Part shown: positions 4,625-52,687 of the stretch, in pieces | How the letters are laid out: each line of letters begins with the position of its first letter | Position numbering within the stretch: position 1 is the first letter of the stretch | Assembly: GCA_028748975.1 (NCBI GenBank) | Contig: JAQTPI010000002.1 | Coordinates: forward strand, 51,213 to 115,212 | DNA from: Patescibacteria group bacterium | GTDB lineage: Bacteria > Patescibacteriota > Patescibacteriia > UBA2196 | Direction: 5' to 3' | DNA length: 64,000 bases | Translations under genes and position numbers: made by a program | The notes under the pieces: generated by a model | Databases searched by the model: none | What the model saw: only the letters and a program-made list of their open reading frames with translations | Told to the model about the DNA's origin: nothing

Positions 4625-4653
4625 TTTTTGCCCAACTTTTTATAATTGCAGAC

Positions 4654-4987
4654 GCCACTTTCTTTGGACAAAGATTTTCTTTCGTTCTTTTTTTAGAAAA
4701 AAGAACCAAAAAAGCGCCGCTGGCAAAAAAGCTTCCACAAAATCGGCTGCGTCCTCGCTAAACCCGTTAACTCCTTGTTCCGCCTCTCCGCCGGCTGGCG
4801 GATCGGCGGAACTTCGTCAGACAGAAGCGGGTTTTTCAGCGCTGCGGCACTGAATCGCTCCGACTTAGCTCGATTTTGTCTGGAACCTTTTTTGAGGCGG
4901 CAGTCGCAACGACGGTTTATTTCTCGTGTTTTGTTAATTGTGTTTTGAGTTTTGTTTTAATGTTTTTATGTTTTAATGCTTTCATGG
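4654..4987. repeat. Element A copy 1 (about 330-nt structured intergenic repeat, candidate ncRNA)
   Basis: Collinear with 18890-19187. Begins gccactttctttggacaaagatttt. Helices gttccgcc/ggcggaac and ttcag/ctgaa are conserved with compensatory changes. Ends in gttttaatg(ttt)tatg motif. Confidence 0.6.
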
Positions 4988-5016
4988 TATAATAAAGTAA
5001 ATAATTGTGAATATCT

Positions 5017-7370: not shown

Positions 7371-7498
7371 TTCCCAAACAACCCCTCCGTCCCGTTGCTA
7401 CGGGACACCTCCCCTTCGAAAGGGGAGGATAGTGACGGCGTTATCCCCTCCTTTCGAAGGAGGGGTGGCCGATAGCAATCGGCCGGGGTGGTTGTAAA
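7371..7498. repeat. P-family palindromic repeat cluster (cccctcctttcgaaggagggg hairpins)
   Basis: Inverted GC-rich stem-loops. The same units recur at 13081-13112, 33017-33150, 38161-38270, 41821-41960, 44007-44110 and 46145-46190. Confidence 0.7.
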
Positions 7499-18880: not shown

Positions 18881-18889
18881 TCTTTTTAT

Positions 18890-19187
18890 GCCACTTTCTT
18901 TGGACAAAGATTTTTTGCCACCTTTTTATAAAGGTGGCGCCAAAAGCGCCGCTGTAAAAAAGTTTTGACAAAAGCGGCCTCGTCGTCACTAATTTTGTTA
19001 ACTCCTTGTTCCGCCTCGTTGCGCTCAACTCGGCGGAACTGCGTCAGACAGAAGCAAAATTTTTTTGACTGCGGTCAAAAATCGTTCCGACTCAGCTCGC
19101 TTTTATACCAAAACTTTTTTAAGGCGGCAGTCACGACGATAACGTAATTGTTTTAATGTTTTCATGTTTTAATGTTTTAATGCTTTT
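18890..19187. repeat. Element A copy 2
   Basis: Collinear with 4654-4987. Occupies the whole mreB-mreC spacer. Confidence 0.6.
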
Positions 19188-19973
19188 ATGTCTCACCGTC
19201 GAACTTTTTACATTATTTTGGCAATAGTTATTATCCTGGGCGGGCACTATTTGGGTTTGTGGCGGCCAATTGAGCGGCTGGCGACCAGAGCTTTGAGTTA
19301 TCCTTTAACCGCCGGCTATTCCTGGGGCCGTGATTTTTTTTCTTTTTTTGGCCGTTTCCAAAATAACGCCGATCTAAAAAAAGAAAACCAAGATCTAAAA
19401 GAACGAACAGCGGTTTTGGATGGAGAAATAATTTCTCTGAAGGAAGCCCTGCGCCAGAAAGGCATAACCGATGAGCAATTGGAATTTTTAAAGCAAGAAA
19501 AATTAAAAGCGGTTTTGGCGCGGGTGATTACTCGAGGCGTGGAAAATAATCCTAACCAGCTGATTATCGATAAGGGCGCGCGTGATGGGATTAAAAATGG
19601 TTTGGTAATTTTGGGCCGGGGCGGAGTGGTGGTTGGCAGGGTGACAAGAGTTGAAGACACCAGCGCCCAGATTTTACTTTTAACCGATACAAGCGTGGAG
19701 ATGGGCGCGGCAGATGTTGATGGCGGGCTTTTGGGCGTTGTTAAAGGCAATAAAGATTTAAGCTTGCGCCTTAATTATGTTTTGAAAGAGAAAAAAATAA
19801 CTAAAGGCGATATCATCATAACTTCCGGCGAGAAAGATTTGATACCGGCCGGACTTTTAATCGGAGAAATTGACCAGGTTTTTGAAGATGAGCGGGAAAT
19901 TTTTAAATCCGCTCGTTTGACGCAGCCGGTTGATGTTGCCAATACGGATATTGTGAGTGTAATTTTATTTTGA
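19188..19973 (+). CDS. mreC: rod shape-determining protein MreC
   Basis: N-terminal transmembrane helix, coiled coil, MreC beta-domain pattern. Operon position. Confidence 0.8.
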   Translation: MSHRRTFYIILAIVIILGGHYLGLWRPIERLATRALSYPLTAGYSWGRDFFSFFGRFQNNADLKKENQDLKERTAVLDGEIISLKEALRQKGITDEQLEFLKQEKLKAVLARVITRGVENNPNQLIIDKGARDGIKNGLVILGRGGVVVGRVTRVEDTSAQILLLTDTSVEMGAADVDGGLLGVVKGNKDLSLRLNYVLKEKKITKGDIIITSGEKDLIPAGLLIGEIDQVFEDEREIFKSARLTQPVDVANTDIVSVILF

Positions 19974-20476: not shown

Positions 20477-20616
20477 GAAATAAGGATATAGGGATATAAA
20501 GATGTGTGAAGCTAACCTGTTATATCCTTATTTCCTTATATCTTTATTATCCATCGCTTCGACCATGGGATCCTTCTCCGCCAACTGGCGGATCAGGATG
20601 ATATTTAATTAAAGGT

Positions 20617-23376: not shown

Positions 23377-23409
23377 TTTTTAATTTTAAATTTTTAATTT
23401 TTAAACGAT

Positions 23410-23445
23410 CGGTTTTCTGTTTTTAGACAGAAAACCGATTTTTTG
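23410..23445 (+). terminator. rho-independent terminator
   Basis: cggttttctg...cagaaaaccg hairpin followed by a T-run. Confidence 0.6.
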
Positions 23446-23498: not shown

Positions 23499-26225
23499 AT
23501 GTCTTTTTTGACCAAAATTTTCGGCGATGCCAATAAAAGAGTGACGGATAAACTGCGCGGGCGCGTGGAGGGGTTTTTAGTTTGGGAAGAAAAAGTAAAA
23601 AAATTAAAAGAAGAAGATTTTAAGAAAAAAACAGAAGAATTTAAGAAAAAACTGGCGGACAAAGAGTTTGAGGAACAGCAAAAAATTATGGACGAGATTT
23701 TGCCGGAGTGTTTTGCCCTGGTGCGCGAAGCGGCGCGGCGCACTTTGGGACAGCGCCACTATGACGTGCAGTTAGTTGCCGGTATGGTTTTGCATCAGGG
23801 TAATATCGCGGAAATGAAAACCGGTGAAGGCAAAACTTTGTCAGCCACGGCCGCGGTATATCTAAACGCGCTCTCCGGACGCGGGGTGCATGTCATCACT
23901 GTTAATGATTATTTGGCGCGGCGCGACATGGTCTGGATGGGACAGATTTATGATTATCTTGGTTTGACGGTTGGTTGCTTAAATCATGAAAGTGCTTTTT
24001 TATATGATTCGGAATTTAAAGGAAATCAGAAATCAGAAATCAGAAATCAGGGAGAAAAATTAGATATCAAACGCGACTCTGTCGGAGCTTTTAAAGTGGT
24101 GGAGGAATTTTTGCGGCCGGTGGAAAGAAGATTGGCGTACGCGGCGGACATTACCTATGGCACCAACAACGAATATGGTTTTGATTATCTGCGCGACAAC
24201 ATGGTGGCGGATTTGGAACAGAAAGTTCAGCGCGAACTGCATTACTCAATCGTGGATGAAGTTGACTCCATTTTGATTGATGAAGCGCGGACGCCACTGA
24301 TTATTTCGGCGCCAGACAGCGAGGCGACGGACAAATATCGCCAGTTTGCCGAATTGGTTTCGCGCTTGAGTGAAGGCGAGGATTACAATATTGATGAAAA
24401 AATGCGCGCGGCCACCTTGACGGAAGAGGGAATTAAAAAGATGGAAAAAATGCTCGGCGTGGAAAATATTTATACCGACCGCGGGGTGCGCGAAGTCCAT
24501 CACATTGAAAACGCGCTTAAGGCGCGCGTGCTTTTCAAATTAGACCGCGATTATGTGGTCAAAGACGGGGAAGTGATTATCGTGGATGAGTTTACCGGAC
24601 GACTGATGCTTGGCCGGCGTTATTCTGACGGGCTTCATCAGGCGATTGAGGCCAAGGAAGGCGTAAAAATTCAGCAGGAATCGGTGACCATGGCCACCAT
24701 CACTTTTCAAAATTATTTCCGCATGTATAAAAAATTGGCGGGCATGACGGGCACGGCGGCCACGGAAGCGGAAGAATTTGCCAAAATTTATAATCTTGAC
24801 GTGATTCAGATTCCAACCAATAAGCCGATGATTCGGGAAGATCTGGGGGATATAATTTTAAAAACAGAAAAAGAAAAATACGGCGCTATCGTGGAAGAAA
24901 TAAAAACGCGCCACCAATTGGGCCAGCCGGTTTTGGTCGGCACAATTTCCATTGAAAATAATGAACGTCTGGCCGAATTGCTTTCCCGCGAGGGTGTGGA
25001 ACACCGCGTCTTGAATGCCAAACAGCATGAAAAAGAAGCGGAAATTATCGCACAAGCCGGCCGTCTTAAGGCCGTAACCATTGCCACCAACATGGCTGGC
25101 CGCGGCGTGGACATAATTCTTGGTGGCAATCCTTCAACAGAAGAAGAACAGGAGGAAGTGAAGAAATTGGGCGGACTTTGTGTCATTGGCACCGAGCGGC
25201 ACGAAAGCCGGCGCATTGACAATCAACTGCGCGGCCGCACTGGGCGCCAGGGCGACCCGGGTTCTTCCCAATTTTTTGTTTCCATGGAAGATGATTTAAT
25301 GCGTATTTTCGGCGGGGAGAGAATGAAAAATTTGATGAACAGTTTGGGTTTGCCCGAGGGCATGCCGATTAAAAACAGGATGATTTCCAATTCCATTGAA
25401 AAAGCCCAACAAAAAGTAGAGGGGCATAATTTTGATATCAGAAAACACCTGGTGGAGTATGACGATGTGATTAATAAACACCGGGAAGTGATTTATAAGA
25501 AACGGAATCAAATACTAACAACTGACAATAAACAACTAACAACTGACAATAAACAACTAACAACTGACAATAAACAACAAATTTTATCATACGTGAAAGA
25601 AGAAATTGAGACAGTGGTTAAATTTCATACGCAAAGCGAAAATAATTGGAACTTGAAAGAAATCTATGAAGTGATGGATACGGTTTTTCCATTAACAGGC
25701 GAAGAAAAGATAGATTATGAAAGCATTAAAGCATTAAAACATGAAAACAAAACAGAGCAAGAAAAATTAATAGATTATCTTTTTGGCTTGGCGGAAAAAC
25801 AATATAATTTATTGGAAAATAAAATAAACAGCGATGAAAATTTGAAAAAGCAATTTAACGGCGCGGAACCGATGCGTTTGGTGGAACGGTCAATATTACT
25901 CCGCGCGATTGATATGCTGTGGGTGGAACACATTGACCAAATGGATCACATGCGCACGGGCATCGGACTCGTGGGTTATGGGCAAAAAGATCCGCTGGTG
26001 GAATATAAGCGCGAGGCCTACCGGATGTTTAATGATCTTCTAACTAATATCAGAAAACAGGTGGTATACAGTATTTTCAAAATATCTATTACTAACAACC
26101 AACAAACAACTAACAACTTACAACAACCATCAGCAGTTGATAAAAATCAAAAACACAAAGTCGGCAGAAACGATCCATGCCCATGCGGATCTGGCAAGAA
26201 ATACAAAAAGTGCTGTGGAAAATAA
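23499..26225 (+). CDS. secA: preprotein translocase subunit SecA (with lineage-specific low-complexity inserts)
   Basis: DEAD-like motor motifs. C-terminal zinc-binding [13 protein letters not shown]. Inserts at 24021-24053, 25512-25578, 25717-25750 and 26089-26128. Confidence 0.9.
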
Positions 26226-32964: not shown

Positions 32965-33189
32965 AGTTATTTAAAAGCTACGAATGTACTAATAAAACGA
33001 ATGTACGAATCCGTCGTTATCCCCTCCTTTCGAAGGAGGGGTGCGAGCGAGAGCGAGCGGGGTGGTTGTGGTGAAATACTTTTTACAACCCCTCCCTCCG
33101 ACTGCTGTCGGAGACCTCCCCTTCGAAAGGGGAGGATAACCAACGCACAATTAGTATATTCGTACGATTCGTAAATTCGTAGATATTTT

Positions 33190-34311
33190 ATGGAAACATT
33201 ACTTGTTCTCAACCTTGGTTCCACTTCCTTCAAATACGAATTATTCAATGCGGAAGATTTGGCGACCATAAATAAAGGCCAGTATGACCTACAATTAACA
33301 ATTAATAGACAACAGACAACAGACAACAGACAACCGAGCGACGAACTACAGGAAGAAGTGGACAGACTTTTTCGCGAGGTTTTACGCCAAGCTGGTGATA
33401 TTAGCGAACTAATGGCGGTTGGCCACCGCGTGGTCCACGGCGGCGACAAATTTTTTGCCACGCAGAAAATTAAGGAAAATGAAATTACGGAATTGGAACA
33501 GCTGAATTCTTTGGCGCCGTTGCACAATCCTTTCAATCTTGCCGGCATCAAGGCGGCCTTTGGCTATCTGCCAGAGACGCCAAATTTCGCTGTTTTTGAC
33601 ACGGGCTTTTTTAAAGATTTGCCGGAAGCGGCTAAAGTTTACCCGATTCCATACGAATATTATGAAAAAGGAATTCATAAATTTGGCTTTCATGGCATTT
33701 CGCATAAATTCGCAGCGGAAGAAGCAGCCAAAGAAATTAATAAGCCTTTGGAAAAAATAAATGTCATCAGCGTGCACCTCGGCGGCGGCGCTTCTGTTTC
33801 CGCCACGCACCATGGCAAACCAATTGACACCTCCATGGGTTTTACGCCAATGGAAGGACTGATGATGGCGACGCGGCCGGGCGATTTAGATCCGGGGGTA
33901 ATAATACAGATGCTCACAGATTTATTACAGATGGACACAGATACACAGATAAATGACGCAAAAACAATTATAGAAAAAATAAATTATATCTTAAATTATG
34001 AATCCGGCGTTAAAGGCATTTGCGGGCAAACCGATTATCTGGAACTTTTAAAAGCCGCGACCTTTGACCCCAGAGCCAAACTGGCTTTTGATATGTTTAT
34101 TAACCGGATTAAAAAATATATCGGCGCCTATGCCGCTTTGCTTGGCGAAGTTGATGCCCTGGTTTTCACCGGCAAAATCGGCGCGGGCAAACCGGAGACA
34201 AGAAAAAAGATTTGTGATAAAATGGGTATACTTAAAGACGTGCCAGTAATAGTGGTGGAGCCGCACGAGGAGTTGGAAATAGCGAGAGAAATTGCAAGTA
34301 AAAACAGATAG
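33190..34311 (+). CDS. ackA: acetate kinase
   Basis: LVLNLGSTSFKYELF N-terminus. ASKHS-family motifs. Carries low-complexity inserts at 33291-33337 and 33905-33952. Confidence 0.85.
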   Translation: METLLVLNLGSTSFKYELFNAEDLATINKGQYDLQLTINRQQTTDNRQPSDELQEEVDRLFREVLRQAGDISELMAVGHRVVHGGDKFFATQKIKENEITELEQLNSLAPLHNPFNLAGIKAAFGYLPETPNFAVFDTGFFKDLPEAAKVYPIPYEYYEKGIHKFGFHGISHKFAAEEAAKEINKPLEKINVISVHLGGGASVSATHHGKPIDTSMGFTPMEGLMMATRPGDLDPGVIIQMLTDLLQMDTDTQINDAKTIIEKINYILNYESGVKGICGQTDYLELLKAATFDPRAKLAFDMFINRIKKYIGAYAALLGEVDALVFTGKIGAGKPETRKKICDKMGILKDVPVIVVEPHEELEIAREIASKNR

Positions 34312-34389
34312 ACACAGATTGAATACGGATTTTCACAGATACACAAATAATAAAATAAATCTACATAAATAAAAACAAAAAATTATTTT

Positions 34390-34809
34390 ATGGATACCGA
34401 TAATTTTTTAGAAAAAGATTTAAGTTATGAAATAGTCGGTTGTTTTTTTGATGTTAGAAACAAATATGGTTCGGCTCACAATGAAAGAGTCTATCATCGC
34501 ACGCTCGCAGAACAGTTTGATATTAAAAAAATAAAATATATTTCTGAGCCAAAAATAGAAGTTTTTTCTCTTGATACTGGGAGAGTAATTGCCCAATACG
34601 TGCCGGACTTTTTAGTGGAAGATAAAATAGTGATAGAATTAAAAGCCAAGGATTTTAATAGTAGTAAATCTTATAGACAAACATTGGAATATTTGAAGGC
34701 CTCAAAATATGAAATTGCTTATTTAGTAAATTTTGGAGAGGAAAATTTTAAACCAGTTAGATTGATTTACACAAATAATAGAAAAAATTTTATATCATTA
34801 ATTAAATAA
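34390..34809 (+). CDS. GxxExxY family protein (PD-(D/E)XK-like)
   Basis: EIVGCFFDV...GSAHNERVY and DFLVEDKIVIELKA motifs typical of the GxxExxY family. Confidence 0.6.
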   Translation: MDTDNFLEKDLSYEIVGCFFDVRNKYGSAHNERVYHRTLAEQFDIKKIKYISEPKIEVFSLDTGRVIAQYVPDFLVEDKIVIELKAKDFNSSKSYRQTLEYLKASKYEIAYLVNFGEENFKPVRLIYTNNRKNFISLIK

Positions 34810-34856
34810 AAACAGATCTGTGTATCTGTGCAAATCTGTTTTTTATCTGTGAAAAT

Positions 34857-36698
34857 ATGTTAAGTATCAAAATCGCCGGACCCGCGGGGTTCGGAATAAA
34901 AGTCACTGGTTCAATTTTAGCCAAGGTATTTTTACGCCTTGGATATTCTGTTTTTGCCTACACCGAATATCCGTCATTAATTCGTGGCGGGCATAACACT
35001 TTTCAAGTGGACGTTAATGGAGAATGTCATCCCGAGGACTCCGACATCACGTCGGAAGACGAGGGATCTCGTAAGTTTTCTGGTGTCAACTCTCCCAGCT
35101 CCAAAGTGGACATTCTCATCGCTTTGACAGGTGAAGCTATAGAAAAAGAAAAAGATAATTTAAAGAAAGACAGCCTGGTCATTTGTGATGATACATTAAA
35201 ACATGAAAGCATTAAAACATTAAAACAAAAGGGAACAAATATTATTGATATTCCCTTAATTGAATTCGCCAAAAAAAATGGCGGAGAATTAATGAAAAAT
35301 ACAGTCGCGCTTGGAGCTTTGTTTGCCATCATCGATAATGTCATTCCGAGGAGCGGGGCGACGAGGAATCTCGTCGAAACATTAAATAAAGTACTCGAAG
35401 ATACTTTTGGTCATAAGGGCGTCGTGGCAGAACAAAACGTAAAAGCAGCGGCAGAGGGCTACGAGTGGCTAAAAAACAATAAAGACAAAATAAAATCTAC
35501 GAGATCCCTCGTCATTCCGACTGCGGCCGGAACTCCTCGGGATGACATTTTACTGCTCATCTCTGGCAACCAGGCCTGCGCTCTCGGCGCCGTGGCCGCC
35601 GGCTGCCAACTCTATTCTGCCTACCCCATGACTCCGGCCACGGAAATTTTGCATTATTTGGAAGCCAAACAAAAAGAAACAAAAATGATTGTGCACCAGC
35701 CCGAAGATGAAATTGCCGCCATTCACGCCGCGCTGGGCGCTTCTTTTGCCGGCGCGAGATCCGCAGTAGGCACTTCTGGCGGCGGTTTTGCCTTAATGAC
35801 CGAGGGACTGTCCTTGGCAGGGCAATTAGAGCTTCCTTTGGTCATTTTTGAGGTTATGCGCCCGGCTCCGGCCACGGGACTACCCACCTGGACCGAACAA
35901 GGCGATTTATCTTTTGTCCTTAATGCCGGCCATGGTGATTTTGCCAGAGCAATTCTGGCTCCCGGCAATCCGGCTGAATGTTTTGAATTAACTCAAAAAG
36001 CCTTCAACCTCGCTGACCAGTTTCAAATTCCGGTTTTTGTCATGACTGATAAATTGCTTGGTGAATCATATTACACCACTGATGAAAAAATATTTAATAA
36101 TATTGAAAAAGTGAATCGGGGAAAAATTATTGGTAATCAGAAATTAGAAATCGGAAATCAGGGACTAAACGAATTATTTGCTCGCTACAAACTGGAAAAA
36201 GATGGCGTGTCACCGCGCACCATACCAGGTACTGAAGGCGGCGAATATGTTGCCAATTCTGATGAACACGATGAGTTTGGAATCTCCAGCGAAAGCGCGG
36301 AAATAAGAAAAGAACAAATGGACAAACGCCTGAAAAAACTGGCGGAATTGCAAAAAGAAATTCCTCTGCCGACTTTGTATGGCCCGAAAGACGCGAAGAC
36401 GACTTTGGTTTGCTGGGGTTCAATGCTGGGAGCTTGTTTGGATACATTAAAACATGAAAGCATTAAAGCATTAAAGCAAAATAACATAAACATCCTGCAT
36501 TTTTCCTATATTTATCCGCTGCCAATGGGATTAACGGAATTTTTAAAGAAATTTAATAATTTAGTGCTGGTGGAAAACAACGCCAGCGGCCACTTTGGCA
36601 AACTCTTGCGCCAAGAAACCGGCATAGAGATTAAAGATAAATTATTAAAGTATGATGGGAGACCTTTCTGGTCAGACGAGATAGCCAAACTTTTATAA
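34857..36698 (+). CDS. 2-oxoacid:ferredoxin oxidoreductase, fused gamma-alpha subunit (carries six in-frame repeat insertions)
   Basis: Gamma domain N-terminus (AGPAGFGIKVTGSIL) followed by alpha domain (GNQACALGAVAAGC...YPMTPATEIL). Inserts at 35035-35081, 35193-35229, 35339-35374, 35500-35547, 36131-36162 and 36443-36476. Confidence 0.8.
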   Translation: MLSIKIAGPAGFGIKVTGSILAKVFLRLGYSVFAYTEYPSLIRGGHNTFQVDVNGECHPEDSDITSEDEGSRKFSGVNSPSSKVDILIALTGEAIEKEKDNLKKDSLVICDDTLKHESIKTLKQKGTNIIDIPLIEFAKKNGGELMKNTVALGALFAIIDNVIPRSGATRNLVETLNKVLEDTFGHKGVVAEQNVKAAAEGYEWLKNNKDKIKSTRSLVIPTAAGTPRDDILLLISGNQACALGAVAAGCQLYSAYPMTPATEILHYLEAKQKETKMIVHQPEDEIAAIHAALGASFAGARSAVGTSGGGFALMTEGLSLAGQLELPLVIFEVMRPAPATGLPTWTEQGDLSFVLNAGHGDFARAILAPGNPAECFELTQKAFNLADQFQIPVFVMTDKLLGESYYTTDEKIFNNIEKVNRGKIIGNQKLEIGNQGLNELFARYKLEKDGVSPRTIPGTEGGEYVANSDEHDEFGISSESAEIRKEQMDKRLKKLAELQKEIPLPTLYGPKDAKTTLVCWGSMLGACLDTLKHESIKALKQNNINILHFSYIYPLPMGLTEFLKKFNNLVLVENNASGHFGKLLRQETGIEIKDKLLKYDGRPFWSDEIAKLL

Positions 36699-36715
36699 AA
36701 ACAAAAAAAATAAGT

Positions 36716-36780
36716 TTATCCGCCGTAGTCCAATAGGGTTGAAAGTCCTCTATGGTTGATGGGGCGAAGGCGGATAAACA
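36716..36780 (+). repeat. Element C copy, followed by a duplicated gene 3' end (36795-36835)
   Basis: tttatccgccgtagt...gaaggcggataaac. Then atgatggccggccgttttggagcgatgagataa mimics the last codons of the upstream gene. Confidence 0.5.
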
Positions 36781-37063
36781 CAGAAAATATTAAAATATGA
36801 TGGCCGGCCGTTTTGGAGCGATGAGATAATAAAAGTAATAAGTAATAAGTAACTAGTAATAAGGGAGTTGTTAGAGACCCCTCTCCTTACCAAGGAGAGG
36901 GCAGGGTGAGGTTTATACACTTCGCCGATAGGCGCATATAATTTATTATTCGTACATTCGTCCCGAGTACTCGGGATTTGTAATTCGTAGTAGGCCGCTT
37001 TAGCGGCCAAAAAAAATCCGGCCACCAGAGATACTGGCAGCCGGTAAGGAGGAGGAAATTTGT

Positions 37064-37387
37064 TTAATTGTTTTCGGAATTTTCGAAACCGAGCATTTTG
37101 CTGACGGTCTCGGCGATTCCTTTTTCCGCCCAGATCCCCACGCAGCCGGGCATTTCAAGATCTGGCCGGTGCGGGGCGTAAACTCGTACGTATTCAAGAA
37201 AGATTCCTTGAATGCCCCCTTGGCGCAGTGCCATGATTTGTTTTATAGTGTCTCCACCAACCCTGGCATTGCGCAGAAAGACAAAAGAAGCGCCCTCCAG
37301 AACATCTGTTCTGGGTTCTGGCCAAGGGTGACGGTGGCACAAGGGACAACCACCAGGTTTGCCTTCTTCTCGGCACTTTGGACACAT
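37064..37387 (-). CDS. hypothetical protein with N-terminal Cys4 zinc ribbon
   Basis: CPKC...CPLC. Confidence 0.35.
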   Translation of the reverse strand: MCPKCREEGKPGGCPLCHRHPWPEPRTDVLEGASFVFLRNARVGGDTIKQIMALRQGGIQGIFLEYVRVYAPHRPDLEMPGCVGIWAEKGIAETVSKMLGFENSENN

Positions 37388-37555: not shown

Positions 37556-37771
37556 TCATCTTTTATTAATGATGGCTGAAATGTATGAAACATCAATGAA
37601 AAGACCGATAATCGTGACTATAATTAGGAGAGGAAGCCAGCTGCCTCCAATTATCACGCATAGATATATTACCAGAACGGTTCTTGGGAGAAAGAAAGCA
37701 ACAATTAACCAAAAACAGATTCCCCAAAAAGTAAACATAGTTTCCTCCTTCTTGTTTGTGTGAATGTTCAA
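37556..37771 (-). CDS. small membrane protein
   Basis: Two hydrophobic helices. Hairpin terminator at 37497-37523. Confidence 0.3.
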   Translation of the reverse strand: MNIHTNKKEETMFTFWGICFWLIVAFFLPRTVLVIYLCVIIGGSWLPLLIIVTIIGLFIDVSYISAIINKR

Positions 37772-37807
37772 TTTAATCTAAAATAACCCTATCATATCTA
37801 AAATTTT

Positions 37808-38161
37808 ATGTCAAACCCTAAAATAGTAAAAGACAAAATTAAATTGTTGGAAATTGAAGAAATGGCAAAAAATCGTTTTGGCAACCTGGTTAAGGCCGTG
37901 GTTGATGTGGAACAAAATTTAATGGCGCTGGATGCCGAAATGCATGTGGACGAAGAACAGTTGCTTTTGAGTTCCGGTTCCAAACAAGAAAATCTTTGGG
38001 GTATAAATTTGTATCCAGAATTTTTTGGCAGGCCGGATTTTGTGGAATTTGATTCCATGATTAATCTGCGTCCCAATCAAAACAATCGCAGTCGGGGAGT
38101 GGAGAGTGTGGAAGTACAAAAAAAGATTATTGAAATTGTAAATAATTTAATAGAAAAATAG
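37808..38161 (+). CDS. hypothetical protein
   Basis: 117-aa ORF. Its promoter region is duplicated at 43020-43065. Confidence 0.45.
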   Translation: MSNPKIVKDKIKLLEIEEMAKNRFGNLVKAVVDVEQNLMALDAEMHVDEEQLLLSSGSKQENLWGINLYPEFFGRPDFVEFDSMINLRPNQNNRSRGVESVEVQKKIIEIVNNLIEK

Positions 38162-38278
38162 TATCCCCTCCTTTCGAAGGAGGGGTGGCCGATCGCAATC
38201 GGCCGGGGTGGTTGTGGTAAAATGTTTTTACAACCCCTCCGCGCCTCCCCTTCGAAAGGGGAGGATAATATAACGATT

Positions 38279-38650: not shown

Positions 38651-38998
38651 TTAAAACCCAAGGAGTTGTAATGTTAACTTTGCAGCATCTTCCTTTTCGT
38701 CCACTTTATGGGTTGCCCCGTGGGCCAGTAATTCGTCATTAGAACGGGGCGTACCGGAAGAGGCGATAATGATTTTTAAACCAGATCGTGATAGTTTTTC
38801 TACAAAAGGGACGGTGCTCAGTGTTTCATTGTTGATACAGGCGTCTATAATCGCCGCGGCGATGTTAAGGTTTTCTTCAAAAAAGTGATTACACTCATAC
38901 ACCCTGGTAAATCTAACGACTTCAACCTTGCCAGAAAGTATTTTGTTAATCTTTTCGAAGTAAACATCTTCATCTTCTACAACTAGTACCTTTTTCAT
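38651..38998 (-). CDS. stand-alone receiver (REC)-like domain protein, paralogue 1
   Basis: KVLVVEDED acidic pocket. IIDAC (phospho-Asp position). IIASSG and HKVDK. 115 aa. Confidence 0.45.
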   Translation of the reverse strand: MKKVLVVEDEDVYFEKINKILSGKVEVVRFTRVYECNHFFEENLNIAAAIIDACINNETLSTVPFVEKLSRSGLKIIIASSGTPRSNDELLAHGATHKVDEKEDAAKLTLQLLGF

Positions 38999-39051
38999 CC
39001 TATTTTCCTCCTTGGTTTTTATAGGTTAATAAATTATTTGATTAATAAATA

Positions 39052-39080
39052 AGTATAGCACAATTAAAATTTTCTGTCAA
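39052..39080 (-). promoter_or_regulatory. minus-strand promoter ttgaca-17-tatact for REC paralogue 1
   Basis: Read on the reverse complement. About 90 percent identical to 42436-42464. Confidence 0.5.
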
Positions 39081-41776: not shown

Positions 41777-41983
41777 GCCAGAGTAATGTCATCCCGAGGA
41801 GTAGCAACGACGAGGGATCTCGCGGTTATCCTCCCCTTTCGAAGGGGAGGTGGTCCGATGTCGCATCGGACCAGAGGGGTTGTAATGTAGCGACGACAAC
41901 CACCCCGGCCGATTGCTATCGGCCACCCCTCCTTCGAAAGGAGGGGATAGCGACCGCCTAGTTAAAAAATAAATAAAAAAAAT

Positions 41984-42010
41984 CGGCCAACCAGATTTGC
42001 TGGCCAGCCG
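41984..42010 (-). terminator. terminator hairpin copy 2
   Basis: cggccaaccagatttgctggccagccg. Confidence 0.55.
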
Positions 42011-42019
42011 AAAGATGAA

Positions 42020-42382
42020 TTAAAACCCAAGAAATTGCAGTGCTAATTTCACCGCCTTGTATTTGTCCGCTTTGTGCGTCGCGCCGGCAGTGATTAATTC
42101 ATCGTTGTTTAAGGAAGAACCGGAAGCAGCGATGATTGGCTTTTTAAATCCGGATTTGACAATTTTTTCGATGAGCGGCATGGAATCTGGTTCGTCGCCT
42201 TCCACACAAGCGTCCATGATAATCACTTCAACGTCAGGATTGGCAAAAAAGAGATTTTCTCCTTCTTTCAACGTCTTGGCATGAAGAATTTCAATTTCAC
42301 TGTTCTTGTCGTGAAATTTGAATACTCGCTCCATTGGCGAAAAATCACTGTCCCTGTCTTCCACCACCAATACCTTTTTCAC
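42020..42382 (-). CDS. stand-alone receiver (REC)-like domain protein, paralogue 2 (GTG start)
   Basis: N-terminal MKKVLVVED and C-terminal LQFLGF conserved with paralogue 1. Middle region diverged. Confidence 0.45.
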   Translation of the reverse strand: MKKVLVVEDRDSDFSPMERVFKFHDKNSEIEILHAKTLKEGENLFFANPDVEVIIMDACVEGDEPDSMPLIEKIVKSGFKKPIIAASGSSLNNDELITAGATHKADKYKAVKLALQFLGF

Positions 42383-42435
42383 TTAATTTTCCTCCTTGGT
42401 TTTTATGGGTTAATAAATTATTTGATTAATAAATA

Positions 42436-42464
42436 AGTATAGCATAACTAAAATTTTCTGTCAA
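42436..42464 (-). promoter_or_regulatory. minus-strand promoter ttgaca-17-tatact for REC paralogue 2
   Basis: Near-identical to 39052-39080. Confidence 0.5.
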
Positions 42465-42470: not shown

Positions 42471-42683
42471 TGTCATCCCGGGCCGTGACCCGGCCTGCCT
42501 GCCCGCTTCGCAACGAGGCGAGCCGGCGAGGCAGGGATCCAATAGTTTGTCATTCCGACCGACCTCTATGGCCGCTTTGAGTGGAGGAATTCCTCCGTCG
42601 TCGTAAAACCACGAAGGGATCCTTCGACTTCGGCCTCTCCGCCAGCTGGCGGAGAGGCCTCCGCTCAGGATGACAAAAAATAA
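42471..42683. mobile_element. composite MITE-like elements (gtcatcccgg ... ctcaggatgac)
   Basis: Two nested units, each with terminal inverted repeats. Confidence 0.55.
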
Positions 42684-42730
42684 TAAAAAAAATCGGCTGG
42701 CCAGATTGGCTGGCCAGCCGAAAGGATTCT

Positions 42731-42961: not shown

Positions 42962-43130
42962 GTTACCCCCCTCTTTTTGTCGTTTGCCCGTTCTTGGGCG
43001 GTTGTAAAAATGAACTATTTTATATAAAATAACCCTATCATATCTAAAATTTTTTGTCAAACCATTCGCTATCCAGTCTGTCATTTTTCACTTTTCATTA
43101 TTCATTTTTCATTATTTATAATACAAACCT

Positions 43131-44003: not shown

Positions 44004-44311
44004 TTAGTCATCCCCTCCTTTTCAAGGAGGGGCAAGGGGTGGTTATTTATTTCGCCGTTAGGCGCGTCGTTTCCCCCCTCTCCTTAACAAGGAGAGGTCG
44101 GGGTGAGGTAGATCGCCAATAGGCGCATCTAATTATGTCATCCCCGCCTTAGGCGGAAATTTGGAAAAACTCGCCCAACCAGCGGGTTTTGTTTTTAGAA
44201 GTATGATTTTTTATGGAACCATTCGCGCGAATGGGTAAATGGATTTTTTTCTAAAATAAAAAAAATCCCCGTCCCAAGTTTTTCCAGGGGCGGGGAAGAT
44301 CATTTTTGTGA

Positions 44312-45874: not shown

Positions 45875-46017
45875 TTTTGCCTCCTTTGGCTTTTTGTTGT
45901 TGGTTTGGGTTGATGGAATGTACTAAAGGCATTGTAGCATGTTTAAAAAATCCTGTCAAGTGGTTTTTGTGTCATCTCGGTTTTAGGTCGACTTGCCGAT
46001 AGGCAAGAACCATAAGT

Positions 46018-46074
46018 TTATCCGCCGGAGTATCAAAAGACTTTTAGAGAACGCAGGCGGAGAAACTTAATTTT
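46018..46074 (+). repeat. Element C copy
   Basis: tttatccgccggagt...gcaggcggagaaacttaatttt. Confidence 0.55.
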
Positions 46075-46268
46075 GACTTTCAGGGCTAAAAGTGGGAGAA
46101 TTAAAGTATAAAAACAAGAGGGCGCTCGCTCCGCTCGTCGCGTTTCGTCCCCTCTCCTTAACAAGGAGAGGAAGGGTGAGGTAGATCGCCGATAGGCGAC
46201 ATCTAATTTCGTTCGCGCCCACCTAATTCTTACTTCCGTACGTAAAGTATTACGTACTCAAAAAATAT

Positions 46269-46445
46269 ATGTCAACGCAAAAATTAATTAATAAAAACAT
46301 CCGCAAACTGACCAAAGTCGGCCAGCACAGTTTTGCTGTTACCCTGCCGATGGAAATGGTTAAAAAATTGAATTGGCGCGAAAAACAAAAAGTAGTGGTT
46401 ACTTTAAAAAGCAAAACTATAACTATTAAAGATTGGAAGAAATAA
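46269..46445 (+). CDS. AbrB/MazE/SpoVT-family small DNA-binding protein (58 aa)
   Basis: KVGQHSFAVTLPMEMVKKL swapped-hairpin motif. Below the ORF-track cutoff. Confidence 0.45.
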   Translation: MSTQKLINKNIRKLTKVGQHSFAVTLPMEMVKKLNWREKQKVVVTLKSKTITIKDWKK

Positions 46446-46523
46446 ATTAAAAAAATTTGTGTAAAAAATAGCCGTCATTCCGAGCGCAATAATGGAATCA
46501 TTTATAGTGTTTTAATTTTAAAT

Positions 46524-47978
46524 ATGGATAAACAAAAACAAAAAAACTTAGGTGCTTTTTATACTCCCGTCAGCGCCGTAGAGTATATGGTTAGTAAACT
46601 GACTGGTTTTTGTGATAAAAGTAAATTATTAGAACCAAGCGGTGGTGATGGAGCTTTTGTTTCTGTAATTTTAAAGAGGGGATTACTAAAATCGGAACAA
46701 ATTACGGTTTGGGATATCAATCCGGAGGTTAAAAATTATATTGAAAATTTGGGCATAAAAAATATAGTAATAAAAGACACGCTTTTATCAACCAATTTTG
46801 CCAGTAATTCTCTCTTTAGAGGAGAATTATTTTCTCATATTATTGGCAACCCTCCGTATTTAAACAAACAAAGTGCTTATATAAAAAAGAATAAACACAG
46901 ATTAGGAGATCTTTTTAAAGAAATCGGTGCTAATGATACCTATGCCATGTTTTTATATTTAGGTTGTAAATTACTAGAAGAAAATGGCGAACTCTGTTTT
47001 ATTATCAGCGACACCTATTTGACTTTAGGAATTCATAAAAAGTTAAGAAAATTTTTATTAAAAAATTATACCATTAATGAAATCACGCTTTGTTCCAAAA
47101 AATTATTTAGAGATAGTGGTGCTTTGGTTAATACAAGTATAATTTATTTAACCAACAAAAAATCATCCGATAGCCACAAAATAATTTTTAATGATTGTCG
47201 AGAAAACGAAGCCGATAACTATATTGGTAAAAAATTTAAAACTATACAAAAAAATATTTTATCATACCCCGATTATGTTTTTGATTTTAATGGTGGGGCA
47301 AAATTACTTGGTAAAATAAACGAACTTAAAAAAATGGTAAGTCTTTTAGATGGTGGTCTAGGAATGCACACGACAGATAATAATGAATTTTTAGCCATTG
47401 TTGATTATGGTGGAAAAAAATATGCTAGCAATAATGGTATAAACAAGATTGTTTCTGCAACAGATATTGATGGGAAAAAATGGAAATTTTATCATAAAAA
47501 GGGTGGTAATAATAAATATTATCTACCGACCGAATATGCCATTCGTTGGGACAAAGAAGCGGTTTCTCACTACAAAATGCCTAAAAATTACGACATTGAT
47601 ATTAAAAGAATAGGATTTGTTGTTTCCGGCATTTGTTCAAACCTAACAGCCAGACTATCAACGCCCGGTGCTCTTTGGGAAAGCAATAAGGCTATGTGTT
47701 TTTTCCCAAAAGACCCTCAAAAATATCCGCCAGAACTTTTTGTCGGCGTTTTAAATAGTGATATTTATAACAAAATGATAAAGTTATTAAATCATACCAA
47801 TTCTTTACAAATTAGAGATATTAAAAAGTTACCCTGGCCTGATTTTACCAATGAAGATGTAAACAAAATAATAACAATCTCTAAAAATATAATTGCCAAA
47901 ATTAAAGAAAACATGGATTATAGTTTCAACGGAGAACAGGAAAAAATTAATCAAATTGTTAATAATTATTTTTTATAG
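46524..47978 (+). CDS. gamma-class N6-adenine DNA methyltransferase (TaqI/Eco57I-like)
   Basis: GAFYTP (motif X). EPSGGDGAF (motif I). NPPY (motif IV). C-terminal TRD-sized extension. Confidence 0.75.
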   Translation: MDKQKQKNLGAFYTPVSAVEYMVSKLTGFCDKSKLLEPSGGDGAFVSVILKRGLLKSEQITVWDINPEVKNYIENLGIKNIVIKDTLLSTNFASNSLFRGELFSHIIGNPPYLNKQSAYIKKNKHRLGDLFKEIGANDTYAMFLYLGCKLLEENGELCFIISDTYLTLGIHKKLRKFLLKNYTINEITLCSKKLFRDSGALVNTSIIYLTNKKSSDSHKIIFNDCRENEADNYIGKKFKTIQKNILSYPDYVFDFNGGAKLLGKINELKKMVSLLDGGLGMHTTDNNEFLAIVDYGGKKYASNNGINKIVSATDIDGKKWKFYHKKGGNNKYYLPTEYAIRWDKEAVSHYKMPKNYDIDIKRIGFVVSGICSNLTARLSTPGALWESNKAMCFFPKDPQKYPPELFVGVLNSDIYNKMIKLLNHTNSLQIRDIKKLPWPDFTNEDVNKIITISKNIIAKIKENMDYSFNGEQEKINQIVNNYFL

Positions 47979-47982
47979 AATT

Positions 47983-48864
47983 ATGAAAAACAGAAAAGTA
48001 AAATCAAATAGAGCCCAAGCCGATTATTTTGAGTTATTAGTTTGTCAATATATTTGCCACTTGTATAATGTCACATTTTCTTACAGTCAAGATTTGGCCA
48101 AGCTATCAAACAAGATCCTTGTTTTACCGGATGGCAAAGCGAGATTAAAACTACAAAATGATAATTTTATAAAAATACAGCCCAAAATCAAAGAGATTTT
48201 AGATTTTGAAATAGGTCAAAAAGGAAAAGTAATAAGCGTGGTTTGGGTTGGTAGAAATCTTTTAATTGAAACGACCTCCGATGTTGACGCCGAACACATT
48301 AATAAGCAAAAAACAAGGTTTTCCATTAAATCAATAGCCAGCACCGGCACTGGTACATTGAAAAATTTGGGTGCAAGACAAATCAAAAAATTTTTAGGAA
48401 TTGATTTTTCACGACAATATAACGAAATGTGGCGAAAACTAAGAGATCATTTAAAGGATTTTGATTTATCACAATCAAGACTGAAAAAGAAAGTGCAAAA
48501 AAATAAAAAATTATTGAAGTGGGCGACAGAAAACGGAAAAAAATATCAAACGAAATTAAATGAATTATGTCTTAATTCTTTTAATAAACTTTCTTTAAAG
48601 GAAAAGATTAATTTTCTTAATTATATTACTGACTGCAATGACGAGGATTTATATGTTATTATTGTAAATTCTGTCGACGTTATAATTTATAAACCGGTAG
48701 ATAAAAAATTAAAAATTATAAAGAATATAAAGGCCAAAAAAAATAATATGGCAGGTGCTGGTTACACAATTTATATTGACGATAAACCAACTTATCGCGT
48801 CCAAACCAACAACACAAATGGAATCGGCATCAGCGCTTATTGTCAAAGAATTTTCTGGATTTAA
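47983..48864 (+). CDS. hypothetical protein, candidate cognate restriction endonuclease
   Basis: Starts 5 nt after the MTase stop. No recognised motif. Assignment by position only. Confidence 0.3.
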   Translation: MKNRKVKSNRAQADYFELLVCQYICHLYNVTFSYSQDLAKLSNKILVLPDGKARLKLQNDNFIKIQPKIKEILDFEIGQKGKVISVVWVGRNLLIETTSDVDAEHINKQKTRFSIKSIASTGTGTLKNLGARQIKKFLGIDFSRQYNEMWRKLRDHLKDFDLSQSRLKKKVQKNKKLLKWATENGKKYQTKLNELCLNSFNKLSLKEKINFLNYITDCNDEDLYVIIVNSVDVIIYKPVDKKLKIIKNIKAKKNNMAGAGYTIYIDDKPTYRVQTNNTNGIGISAYCQRIFWI

Positions 48865-48961
48865 TTGAAAAGACGAATAAAGAAATTGACGAAAAAGTCT
48901 ATGGCTTTTACGGCCTGACGGAGGAGGAAATAAAAATTATAGAAATTAATAAATAGATAAT

Positions 48962-49828
48962 ATGAACAGTGAAGAATTTAAAAATCTCTATTCAATGCAA
49001 AGTTTGGATGAATCAATTACGCCGTTTACAAACAATGTTGGCTTTTCATTAATTCGCAAATATCCTGAAAATACAACCTATTTTAAAGACGGAAGAATGA
49101 TGTTTATTAAAGTTGCCATACTTGATGGAGGATTTTTTTACGGAGTGGATATGACTAAACCCGAAAAAAGAGGAGGAACAACCGATTATGTTATTGTTGA
49201 CGGAGAAGAATATAAGAAAAAAATTACAAATTTTTTTTCAAATGATAACGAATTTATATTTGATAATACGACTCAAAAAATAATTTATCAGCCGACAAAC
49301 AAAAGTTTTACGATGAACAAGTTTGTAGAAATTTTAGTAGCAAACCATCTTTCAGACAGACTATTCTTGAAGCGTATCTGGAACGAACTTGCTGATAGAA
49401 TTTTAAAATTTTTATTTTGGCTGTCAGATGCCCATTATGAACGAGCTCAGGTGATGATTGATAAATACGATTATGATAGGGGTGAAATTTTACCCCCAAA
49501 AGATGAAAAGAAAAATATTGAACCATTTTTTAAATATTTTTATATTTCAAAAAATATTTTGTTTTCAATTTTATTAATAACCTTTCCATCCGCCTTTTTT
49601 CTCGGTATTTATTGGGTACGCGGAGATTTTTCATTATCAAACCCAACTTTAGTTTTACTATTTTTTTTAATTTTATTTACATGCGAGAAATTGTCTATCT
49701 GGTTAGATAAAAAAATAAAAAAATTCCTTATACCACCAAAAGATCTCTTTACCGAGAAAAAAATAAACTTTATAGAAAAACTACACAATTATCAGTATCG
49801 AAACAATTTTCAGCTTAAAATAAACTAA
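48962..49828 (+). CDS. hypothetical protein with two C-terminal transmembrane helices
   Basis: Soluble N-terminal domain and hydrophobic C-terminus. Confidence 0.4.
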   Translation: MNSEEFKNLYSMQSLDESITPFTNNVGFSLIRKYPENTTYFKDGRMMFIKVAILDGGFFYGVDMTKPEKRGGTTDYVIVDGEEYKKKITNFFSNDNEFIFDNTTQKIIYQPTNKSFTMNKFVEILVANHLSDRLFLKRIWNELADRILKFLFWLSDAHYERAQVMIDKYDYDRGEILPPKDEKKNIEPFFKYFYISKNILFSILLITFPSAFFLGIYWVRGDFSLSNPTLVLLFFLILFTCEKLSIWLDKKIKKFLIPPKDLFTEKKINFIEKLHNYQYRNNFQLKIN

Positions 49829-49890
49829 TTTATTTTAAAATTTTATTGGATGCTAAAGTTTTCAAAAAATAAAAATTTAAACAAGAAATT

Positions 49891-50757: not shown

Positions 50758-50923
50758 GCGGGGAGCAGACCTTTGTCAAAACTGGTTGCCCCGCTTTTTG
50801 TTTTGGGAGCTTATTTTTAAGTATAATCTAATTATAGACAAGTACAATACCCTTGTCAATTTTTTGTCAAGTCCAAATTTGACAAATTACCTTCACTGGA
50901 TGTATAATTAAGTTATCCACAAT

Positions 50924-52011: not shown

Positions 52012-52098
52012 CCCTATTGCTTTTCTAAGTTGACTAACCATCATTTTTTTTATTCCCGGTTTAGTGCTAAAATTAAACCATCATAACCACCACAAAAA

Positions 52099-52684: not shown

Positions 52685-52687
52685 GTA

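Follow-up and report, generated by a model that had tools for sequence, protein, structure and literature searches.

Genes and Tandem Arrays in the Window

The DNA analyzed in this study is a 64-kb stretch (hereafter the window, meaning the whole stretch) of a metagenome-assembled genome (MAG) of a Patescibacteria group bacterium within the Candidate Phyla Radiation (CPR), and the subject is a set of short tandem arrays with units of 7 or 8 nucleotides (nt) that lie in spacers and, in frame, in conserved genes such as secA. Relatives of the genome were represented by short flanks. The coding strand is A-rich, and nearly all genes of the window lie on the + strand. A preliminary description of the DNA had named the genes that host low-complexity runs; these names were borne out by Pfam and NCBIfam, and every run on its list was found where it had been placed. 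The host genes and the gene that lies between two of the runs are as follows.

1-1950: ORF1, a VirD4/TraD-like ATPase (Pfam and NCBIfam)
23499-26225, + strand: secA, 908 amino acids (aa), with Pfam SecA_DEAD, PP_bind, P-loop, SW, and SEC-C; 100% match to a Patescibacteria MAG SecA; contains four arrays
33190-34311: acetate kinase gene ackA (identity by Pfam and NCBIfam)
34390-34809, + strand: GxxExxY / PD-(D/E)XK (PDDEXK_3) gene (Pfam; NCBIfam TIGR04256), located between two arms
34857-36698: 2-oxoacid:acceptor oxidoreductase alpha, fused (Pfam and NCBIfam)
56506-58326: recJ (Pfam and NCBIfam)

Arrays were detected with Tandem Repeats Finder (TRF) and compared with third-order Markov shuffles. 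A total of 86 non-redundant arrays were identified in the window, compared with 24.9 in the shuffles, and the surplus sits at periods 7 and 8 and their multiples. Fourteen arrays have a period of 7 (2.7 in the shuffles) and 20 a period of 8 (3.4 in the shuffles), so that octamers are as common as heptamers and the two periods together exceed the null approximately 5-fold. The typical array consists of about four units (28-40 nt), with a range of 2-7 units over all arrays. Non-coding DNA makes up 21.5% of the window and holds 26 out of 50 arrays (52%, p=2e-6); the remaining half, approximately, is located in frame within open reading frames (ORFs). The arrays often adjoin start and stop codons, and inverted array pairs fold as hairpins (z -3 to -4.4). 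Coding arrays are short (3-5 units) and mostly degenerate, and some arrays are 100% perfect. As a unit of 7 or 8 nt is not a multiple of three, each such array passes through all three reading frames.

Units Are Shared between Loci

The same units recur at different loci of the window, as the preliminary description had stated, and do so well above chance. Among the 43 arrays of period 7 or 8, nine pairs have an identical unit (any rotation or strand) where 0.64 are expected, and 40 pairs have units that differ by at most one mismatch where 10 are expected; none of 300 simulations reached values as high. Each array family comprises 3-6 loci inside the 64 kb. The view that all listed runs belong to one family held up for the GAAATCA units, which are common to ORF1, secA, and the oxidoreductase gene, but the set as a whole is heterogeneous, with the recJ and ACAGAT runs standing apart. 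The heptamer arrays within genes are:

1657-1699, + strand: GAAATCA-type array with a 21-nt higher-order unit in the tail of ORF1, encodes TGNQKTEIGNQK
24021-24053 (core 24022-24050), + strand: (GAAATCA)x4.1, 100% perfect (TRF), secA site 1, 11 protein letters over three frames
25512-25578 (perfect 25514-25578), + strand: 21-nt unit x3.1, 100% identity, TRF score 130, secA site 2, encodes (TTDNKQL)3
26091-26127, + strand: A/C-rich AACAACY heptamer array in the C-terminal linker of secA; family D4, with further members at 25513 and 33290
33291-33337 (array 33291-33334), + strand: (ACAATTA)x2 plus (AGACAAC)x4, TRF 100%, ackA N-terminal variable region, encodes LQLTINRQQTTDNRQ
36131-36162 (array 36135-36161), + strand: GAAATCA-type array, oxidoreductase site B, encodes IGNQKLEIGNQG

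Across its frames (GAAATCA)n reads EIRNQKS. The copies in ORF1 and at oxidoreductase site B are degenerate (72-90% matches), encode GNQKxEIGNQ, and have a 21-nt higher-order pattern in common; the ORF1 array can also be aligned with the arrays of the oxidoreductase gene, secA, and site 2 of secA in the relative L002. The 21-nt unit at secA site 2 is itself made up of three degenerate heptamers (ACTAACA, ACTGACA, and ATAAACA).

A second major family, the octamer CAT[T/G]AAA[A/G], was absent from the preliminary description and occupies five loci of the window:

4953-4986, - strand: non-coding octamer array (+ strand reading TGTTTTAATG...), 31 nt in front of a glycoside hydrolase family 1 (GH1) gene
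19149-19191, - strand: non-coding octamer array, abuts the mreC start codon
25716-25749, + strand: octamer array TATGAAAG CATTAAAG CATTAAAA CATGAAAA in secA, encodes 11 protein letters
35193-35227, + strand: octamer array, oxidoreductase site A, encodes TLKHESIKTLKQ, modelled helix 117-124
36445-36478, + strand: octamer array, oxidoreductase site C, encodes TLKHESIKALKQ, present in P0124 and absent from P0125

The 18-mer CATGAAAGCATTAAARCA has 11 matches at five loci of the window, compared with 0.01 expected. The peptide of the octamer array is LKHESIKT. The octamer region at oxidoreductase site C is 76% identical over 79 nt to 35183-35261, flanks included (family D7), and the site-A array exceeds that of P0124 by 24 nt (three units). 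All coding octamer arrays carry a G (CAT GAA) where CAT TAA would be a stop, and the G variant is also found in non-coding copies.

The antisense octamer arrays at start codons (4953-5016, 17800-17839, and 19149-19190) have a feature of their own: the unit on the gene strand reads ATG TTT TA(A), a minimal start-stop ORF. These arrays lack a visible Shine-Dalgarno sequence, and at four further CPR loci the array occupies the very 5' end of an ORF. Two long spacers that end in antisense octamer arrays (4625-5016 and 18881-19187) have several blocks in common, with 75% identity over 110 nt; they could represent a repeated leader or a non-coding RNA, with no Rfam match at gathering score.

Further families and runs were identified as listed here.

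14091-14120 (+ strand), 17708-17737 (+ strand), and 36833-36863 (- strand): CTTATTAC family, four units including one TAGTTAC variant
13139, 32979, 33149, and 36946: ATTCGTA/TACGAAT family
20480-20552, + strand: inverted array pair ATAAGGAT / TTATATCC (at 20480 and 20520), hairpin of -25.1 kcal/mol, z -4.35
58858-58925, + strand: GAATAGA/GAAGAGA array with inverted partner at the RNase H stop codon, family D9, fold z -2.98
1609-1632 and 1710-1748: further copies of the GAATAGA/GAAGAGA family within the VirD4-like ORF
57134-57193, + strand: K/E-rich EKQ-type run in recJ, EKQEKQEKSEKQEK..., TRF periods 9, 16, and 18, codon-based

A three-way alignment places the irregular TAGTTAC unit in each of the three CTTATTAC copies. 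All GAAATCA arrays (that of L002 included) and all CTTATTAC arrays have about four units (28-30 nt). The recJ run had been counted in the same insert class and does not belong there: its period is 9/18, it represents ordinary codon-level low complexity, and its unit occurs in no other locus. The run is unaligned with RecJ of the Protein Data Bank (PDB) and makes the protein approximately 25 aa longer.

Turnover of Arrays at Fixed Sites

An alignment of 23 CPR SecA proteins displays two hypervariable loops located exactly at array positions, site 1 being such a loop. Site 1 contains (GAAATCA)4 in the window, (CAAATCC)3 in L005, AACTTAC/AACAAAC in L002, and ATAAAAAT units in L001. The units of sites 1 and 2 are swapped between L002 and the window, so that the GAAATCA array of L002 is found at site 2, and the site-2 repeat of the window is missing in L001 and L002, which carry GAAATCA-type units instead. 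Four genomes have four unrelated families at oxidoreductase site B: the window carries GAAATCA, L005 carries GACAAGA, L003 has AGTRTCM, and L004 has the CATTAAAA octamer. Within the oxidoreductase gene, the octamer is located at sites A and C in the window; L003 has it at site C and at a linker site, and L004 at site B. The ackA segment 33291-33337 is missing or different in L005, L322, and L325. The placement on orthologue alignments, a check proposed in the preliminary description, thus shows the same two loops of secA and one loop of the oxidoreductase filled by unrelated array families.

Variation was also found at the level of strains. Six samples of a sister lineage (94.5-100% identity) reveal a 24-nt indel at oxidoreductase site B (TTAGAAACTGAGAAATTAAGTAAT) that corresponds to three octamer units, the strains with the indel being approximately 97% identical. 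One strain of the sister lineage has its PTAC-ackA spacer wholly replaced, with CCGAAT-type inverted arrays for the GC-rich palindromic modules. The comparison of strains, as suggested previously, thus reveals polymorphism in the sister lineage. For the source population, three Logan assemblies (SRR22315506/08/09) are identical to the window over 33163-34925; they verify the ackA arrays and display no polymorphism over this segment.

Coding Arrays at the DNA and the Protein Level

The peptide HESIK is encoded by CAT GAA AGC ATT AAA at all three sites of the window and at three sites in two relatives. This combination of codons has p ~0.04 per site under the codon usage of the genome, and Ser is encoded by the same one of six codons at every site. 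The codon identity and the non-coding copies on the reverse strand exclude convergence at the protein level. Together with the unrelated families at orthologous loops, they uphold the earlier conclusion that the likeness between the inserts arose at the level of DNA.

Heptamer and octamer arrays differ in the protein structures that they encode. In AlphaFold models, the heptamer arrays correspond to segments with a predicted local distance difference test (pLDDT) value <50 at residues 427-438 of the oxidoreductase (site B) and residues 176-189 (site 1), 677-688 (site 2), and 864-886 (C-terminal linker) of SecA; the SecA model is globally poor (predicted template modelling score, pTM, 0.34), and only local pLDDT was therefore used. 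The site-B array represents a clean insert of 9 aa relative to the Sulfolobus oxidoreductase OFOR 5b46. The octamer arrays of the oxidoreductase form confident helices at residues 117-124 and 523-538, and compared with solved structures they replace segments of equal length.

Complementary Arms around the GxxExxY Gene

The ACAGAT runs form a class with different properties. The features concerned are:

32979-33010 and 33149-33181, + strand: gene-less arm pair of ACGAAT and ATTCGT, which flanks approximately 140 nt of GC-rich hairpin modules
33905-33952, + strand: ACAGAT-core cluster x5, spacing 8-11 nt, inside ackA, encodes QMLTDLLQMDTDTQI
34303-34348, + strand: upstream arm, AC[AG][AG]AT motif array that supplies the ackA stop codon, ACAGAT x3 at 34304-34340
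34816-34861, + strand: downstream arm, AT[CT][CT]GT motif array that ends at the oxidoreductase start codon, reversed ACAGAT x4 at 34812-34850

Runs on both sides of the GxxExxY gene had been reported as cacagata repeats; both are present, but the downstream array is the reverse complement of the upstream array. The two arms are 78% complementary over 46 nt, their duplex reaches -40 kcal/mol (z -8.2), and a fold of 34296-34862 closes the GxxExxY ORF with the arm stem in both the minimum free energy (MFE) and the centroid structure. The same architecture around GxxExxY genes was identified at eight loci in seven genomic positions, in each case between protein-coding neighbors on the same strand: ackA/oxidoreductase (window and L322), RecJ/RNase H (L005), RRF/aminoacyl-tRNA synthetase (aaRS), pheS/pheT, oxidoreductase alpha/beta, an unannotated neighbor pair, and ABC ATPase/permease. 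The cassettes are located at 34303-34861 of the window, 17853-18340 of L005, 2895-3470 of L322, and around position 2000 of L328, L330, L332, L334, and L335. Over the eight loci, AC[AG][AG]AT occurs 29 times in 651 nt upstream (0.85 expected) and AT[CT][CT]GT 26 times in 409 nt downstream (0.42 expected), with almost perfectly strict orientation. Duplexes between the flanks reach -25 to -48 kcal/mol (z -4 to -9) in six of the eight loci. Transition mismatches within the arms, read on the sense strand, are of the G.U type in 21 cases and of the A.C type in 8.

The ACAGAT runs are not recent inserts: the L322 lineage keeps the arms and the ackA cluster although AckA is only 64% and the oxidoreductase approximately 58% identical (P0129), which indicates that these elements are old and probably constrained. 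The ackA cluster, which is conserved at the DNA level in that lineage, adds approximately 11 aa relative to Thermotoga AckA. The ATTCGTA family of the window has the same motif as the arms, and strain L325 carries an arm-only hairpin in the spacer that holds the gene-less pair (32979-33181) in the window. Folding and substitution patterns suggest that the AC[AG][AG]AT / AT[CT][CT]GT family would have an additional structural role in the RNA, as the arms of a long-range stem around GxxExxY genes that are wedged between operon partners. The possibility that each GxxExxY protein recognizes its own arm motif was considered and set aside; A and G variants are mixed within single arms, for which wobble pairing is the better fit.

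Distribution in Other Genomes

A scan for the 18-mer in 185,579 species genomes returned at least 113 loci. Among the matches listed, 25 loci contain at least four tandem units; 18 of these are labelled Falkow-, Uhr-, Magasanik-, Morani-, Kuenen-, Saccharibacteria or Patescibacteria and seven are MAGs labelled "uncultured Gammaproteobacteria" or "bacterium", and named non-CPR genera display single matches only. Approximately half of the arrays at these loci are intergenic and often followed by an inverted array, and octamer arrays in the form of inverted hairpins are found in many CPR genomes. The remaining arrays are located within genes that encode ribosomal protein L3, TGT, TsaD, a Mur ligase, SecA, PolA, AlaRS, a GT4 glycosyltransferase, and a C39-like peptidase. 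The density of period-7 arrays, at which period there is no ascertainment bias, is 2.0 per 10 kb in 25 CPR loci compared with 0.41 in 80 non-CPR loci.

The heptamer is more widespread. At least 120 metagenome contigs of 25-72% GC contain (GAAATCA)3, frequently with an inverted (GATTTCC)n partner. Contigs of 60-72% GC (L219, L130, L190, L233, and others) carry AT-rich (GAAATCA)n beside inverted (GGATTTC)n or (TGATTGC)n; an inverted partner accompanies 22 out of 69 high-GC (GAAATCA)n matches among those listed, and such heptamer zipper hairpins thus occur well outside the CPR. Perfect 3-unit arrays in viral contigs number 24 for the octamer CATTAAAA compared with 5 and 26 for scrambled units, and 7 for GAAATCA compared with 5 and 7. 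The idea that the units are special outside the lineage was dropped in view of these counts and of the wide occurrence of (GAAATCA)3. Phages were also rejected as the source of the arrays, the 18-mer matches in viral contigs being single and non-array.

Origin of the Arrays

Generation and copying of short arrays by slippage and template switching, followed by a selection filter, is considered the best explanation with moderate confidence. Replication slippage would create the 7-8-nt arrays and change their length, and copies at new and inverted positions would come from template switching or from short-patch conversion where existing arrays offer microhomology. Non-coding DNA would retain most copies, often in the form of hairpin-forming inverted pairs. 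Copies in essential genes would be kept only if they are located on the A-rich sense strand and are stop-free in all three phases, if their length changes in 3-unit steps (21 or 24 nt), and if they fall into a permissive loop or a replaceable helix. The inserts had previously been called mobile or slippage-generated. Slippage is favored by the perfect, recent tandem expansions and the 24-nt strain indel; copying is favored by the irregular variants and the higher-order unit arrangement common to several loci, but fixed ends, a target duplication, and, among the ORFs of the window, a transposase were not found.

Several points weigh against slippage and template switching. The stop-avoiding G variant and the sense orientation of the coding arrays are forced by selection and provide no independent evidence of copying, and the constant length of about four units in the GAAATCA and CTTATTAC arrays is not predicted by open-ended slippage. 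No slippage or template-switch event was observed directly in this analysis, and the three Logan assemblies, which represent the same population, display no polymorphism in the ackA-GxxExxY region. The apparent restriction of the octamer array to the CPR comes from a scan with no matched control behind it. Scrambled units are equally common in viral contigs, so that the units are not globally special and some of their recurrence may be compositional. Unit sharing between the window and three relatives is modest (7 compared with 2.6 expected, P=0.04), which together with the scrambled controls indicates that unit families are propagated mainly within genomes and lineages.

A purely local origin, in which arrays grew independently by slippage and resemble each other because few heptamers and octamers are A-rich, stop-free, and hydrophilic-coding, is judged unlikely. 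It would account for the scrambled composition-matched units that form 3-unit arrays about equally often in viral contigs, for the weak sharing between genomes, and for the unit-like native sequence at empty sites of the oxidoreductase gene (for instance, TCT TTG AAA CAA for site A and GCG CTT AAA for site C). Sharing within the genome is nevertheless 14-fold above the composition-matched null and extends to non-coding families that are under no coding filter (CTTATTAC/TAGTTAC, ATTCGTA, and ACACAGAT). Furthermore, the identity of the two oxidoreductase sites includes their flanks, and triplication of ACATTAAA would place an in-frame TAA in essential genes, whereas all coding copies carry CATGAAAG, which is also found in non-coding copies.

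It is likewise doubtful that the arrays serve chiefly as cis-elements maintained by selection (RNA stems, hairpins for processing or resembling terminators, or iterons bound by proteins) with incidental coding copies. Their enrichment in non-coding DNA beside start and stop codons, the significant folding of inverted pairs, and the octamer hairpins in many CPR genomes are in line with such a function, as are the ACAGAT arms and ackA cluster, which are conserved in DNA across lineages, and the bias of arm variation toward wobble-compatible changes; for the ACAGAT arms, a primary cis-element function is probably correct. The coding arrays, however, are not positionally conserved, since the same loop carries unrelated units in close relatives, and canonical terminators exist separately beside some arrays (1974-2040 and 23407-23440). 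Many unrelated families coexist within 64 kb, and an Rfam search (whole window at gathering threshold, 36600-37200 at E<=1) matched the tRNA-Pro only, so that arrays and mosaic spacers correspond to no known RNA family.

A non-autonomous mobile element comparable to miniature inverted-repeat transposable elements (MITE), paired repetitive extragenic palindromes (REPIN), or small dispersed repeats (SDR), moved by a dedicated enzyme for which the GxxExxY or GIY-YIG nucleases in the same intergenic hot spots are candidates, appears improbable. The dispersed families, their presence or absence between relatives, and the near-constant length of about four units resemble such an element; inverted array pairs bracket the nuclease gene between operon partners at the eight loci, a gene-less arm pair is found at 32979-33181, and GIY-YIG genes follow the oxidoreductase gene in L004, L005, and L322. 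A comparison of empty with filled sites between genomes, however, revealed neither fixed ends nor target-site duplications in the arrays, and their copy number and unit sequence form a continuum. No transposase, integrase, or REP-associated tyrosine transposase (RAYT) is encoded among the approximately 60 ORFs of the window (Pfam). The ackA-GxxExxY-oxidoreductase order and the arms are stably inherited between lineages at ~58-64% protein identity, and the heptamer families of secA and the oxidoreductase gene are unlinked to any nuclease gene. A more speculative proposal, to which little likelihood is given, is that the GxxExxY genes are the cargo of an undescribed selfish cassette between co-transcribed genes whose arms pair in the transcript, the 7-8-nt CPR arrays, those in frame in secA, the oxidoreductase gene, and ackA included, being its cis-elements, empty arms, and repair scars, spread by the nuclease and not by passive slippage.

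Phase variation, in which the gain or loss of one unit would toggle genes, is very unlikely. Neither 7 nor 8 is divisible by three, and phase variation through heptanucleotide repeats is known from neuO and HMW1A, but the hosts are single-copy essential housekeeping genes (secA, ackA, and oxidoreductase; in other CPR ribosomal protein L3, PolA, and AlaRS), the arrays have 3-5 mostly degenerate units, and the sole strain-level indel seen comprises three units and is in frame. The hydrophilic peptides and the disordered loops of the heptamer arrays would fit convergent selection for hydrophilic linkers at the protein level, but this and an assembly artefact can hardly be considered, given the identical HESIK codons (down to one of six Ser codons), the same units on the other strand of non-coding DNA, and the recurrence of the arrays, which a single read can span, both in the three independent Logan assemblies and in JGI, NCBI, and ENA assemblies that are unrelated to them.

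Other Repeats and Features of the Window

The oxidoreductase gene also contains GC-rich palindromic modules of the form GTCAT[CT]CCGA...TCGG[GA]ATGAC (35026-35070, 35340-35372, and 35511-35546). Modules of this type are also found at the 3' end of recJ (58303-58320) and in non-coding DNA (17522, 32256, 41788, 42549, 46474, 58425, and 58985-59057). Read in frame, they encode CHPEDSDITSEDEGS, VIPRSGATRNL, VIPTAAGTPRDD, and GCHPEK. The modules of the oxidoreductase are present or absent among close orthologues and form loops with pLDDT <50. A second type of hairpin module, CCCCTCC...GGAGGGG / CCTCCCC...GGGGAGG (families D5, D6, D13, and D14), combines with the arrays into mosaic spacers reminiscent of bacterial interspersed mosaic elements (BIMEs).

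7378-7495, 13076-13110, 33018-33139, 36878-36912, 38162-38268, 41830-41950, 44010-44109, and 46149-46183: CCCCTCC-type hairpin modules
38973-39080 and 42357-42464; 37756-37817 and 43002-43063; 41965-42014 and 42675-42724: pairs of spacer duplicates

The spacer duplicates (families D3, D8, and D11) are located around the PPDK and oxidoreductase-beta genes, measure 50-110 nt with 85-90% identity, and may be promoter or terminator modules present in repeated copies. Downstream of the oxidoreductase gene, a non-coding element (36712-36830 of the window, 11790-11905 of L005) consists of a GTTTATCCGCC...GGCGGATAAAC hairpin plus GGCCGTTTTGGAGCGATG; its conservation with the syntenic relative far exceeds that of the flanking proteins, and it has no Rfam match at E<=1. 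A tRNA-Pro(CGG) gene (11112-11249) is followed by a 54-nt tandem copy (x1.9, 90%) of the 3' half of the tRNA, a duplication such as integration at a tRNA gene leaves behind. A low-GC island at 46000-52800 (28-33% compared with ~42%) encodes an Eco57I-like N6 methyltransferase, an S24 peptidase, and a MazF/PemK toxin, contains a 131-nt direct repeat in three copies (50562, 52098, and 52687), and was probably acquired horizontally.

Relation to Known Repeats and Significance

The closest known systems are the heptameric simple sequence repeats (SSR), or short tandemly repeated repetitive (STRR) sequences, of cyanobacteria and Xanthomonas. Such SSRs (in Calothrix and Nostoc, and GGGAATC in Xanthomonas) consist of dispersed 7-nt units for which slippage is the proposed origin (Rehm et al. 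2015, PMC4692102). The arrays described here are alike in that they consist of tandem 7-nt units, with one unit at many loci, mostly intergenic near gene ends, form inverted stem-loop pairs, and vary in length and sequence between close relatives; units of the window and L002 (GGATTAA/GGAATAG and TAGGGAA) even resemble the SSR units GGGAATC/GGGGATT. They differ in that many A-rich families coexist instead of one G-rich unit prone to form G-quadruplexes (G4), that octamers are equally common, that approximately half of the arrays lie in frame in conserved and essential genes, and that they occur in a CPR bacterium, whose genome is tiny. The small dispersed repeats of Nostoc punctiforme (SDR, 21-27 nt), reportedly described by Elhai and colleagues in 2008, are said to be unique near-palindromic sequences inserted within heptamer tracts. 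They too are reported to be dispersed elements of less than 40 nt without an enzyme of their own, to be tied to heptamer arrays, and to occur sporadically at orthologous sites and sometimes within genes; here, in contrast, the array itself is the dispersed unit, and no SDR-like insert was identified.

The tandem repeats of Borgs are likewise A-rich, occur in intergenic regions and ORFs where they keep the frame, encode disordered regions, turn over fast, and are suspected to arise by slippage (Schoelmerich et al. 2023, PMC9879509). Borg ORF repeats have units divisible by three and are perfect and locus-specific (PMC9879509). Only the secA 21-nt x3 repeat (25514-25578) matches this type; the other coding arrays, with units of 7-8 nt, pass through three frames, are degenerate for the most part, and have units common to several loci.

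Rickettsia palindromic elements (RPE) are palindromic elements of defined length (100-150 bp) that lie in frame at protein surfaces and are present or absent among orthologues. They are alike as selfish-looking repeats that are tolerated in frame in conserved proteins, and differ from the present arrays, which are tandem, non-palindromic, and variable in length (28-65 nt). The palindromic modules of the oxidoreductase gene (30-45 nt, one third of the RPE size) are a closer analogue than the arrays. The intervening sequences (IVS) of 23S rRNA contain small ORFs (PF05635 23S_rRNA_IVP) and are excised via a stem that is cut by RNase III. The GxxExxY cassette is similar in that a small ORF is located within long complementary flanks inside a host transcript, and an IVP gene is found in the same neighborhood as the GxxExxY cassette in L335. 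It differs in its position between protein-coding operon partners, all eight cassettes lying between protein-coding genes and none in 23S rRNA, and in its arms of repeated 6-nt motifs that form a putative stem.

A search of the literature returned nothing relevant on such arrays in CPR or on the GxxExxY arm architecture, which, given its incomplete coverage, is weak evidence of absence. The arrays differ from known repeats in four respects, namely the many coexisting A-rich families, the octamers, the routine in-frame residence in essential genes via three-unit steps, and the CPR host. CPR have minimal genomes, and their conserved proteins often contain lineage-specific insertions of unexplained origin, for which the arrays provide a concrete source at the DNA level. 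Frame-cycling arrays of the same families as in intergenic DNA repeatedly colonize permissive loops of SecA, the oxidoreductase, and, in other CPR, ribosomal protein L3, PolA, AlaRS, TGT, and TsaD, and replace each other there. This offers a testable path by which junk repeats may become new protein segments, with heptamers leading to disordered loops and the octamer to amphipathic helices. It also calls for caution in the use of such inserts as functional signatures or phylogenetic markers. Finally, the complementary arrays around GxxExxY genes at eight loci provide a first handle on a widespread and uncharacterized gene family.

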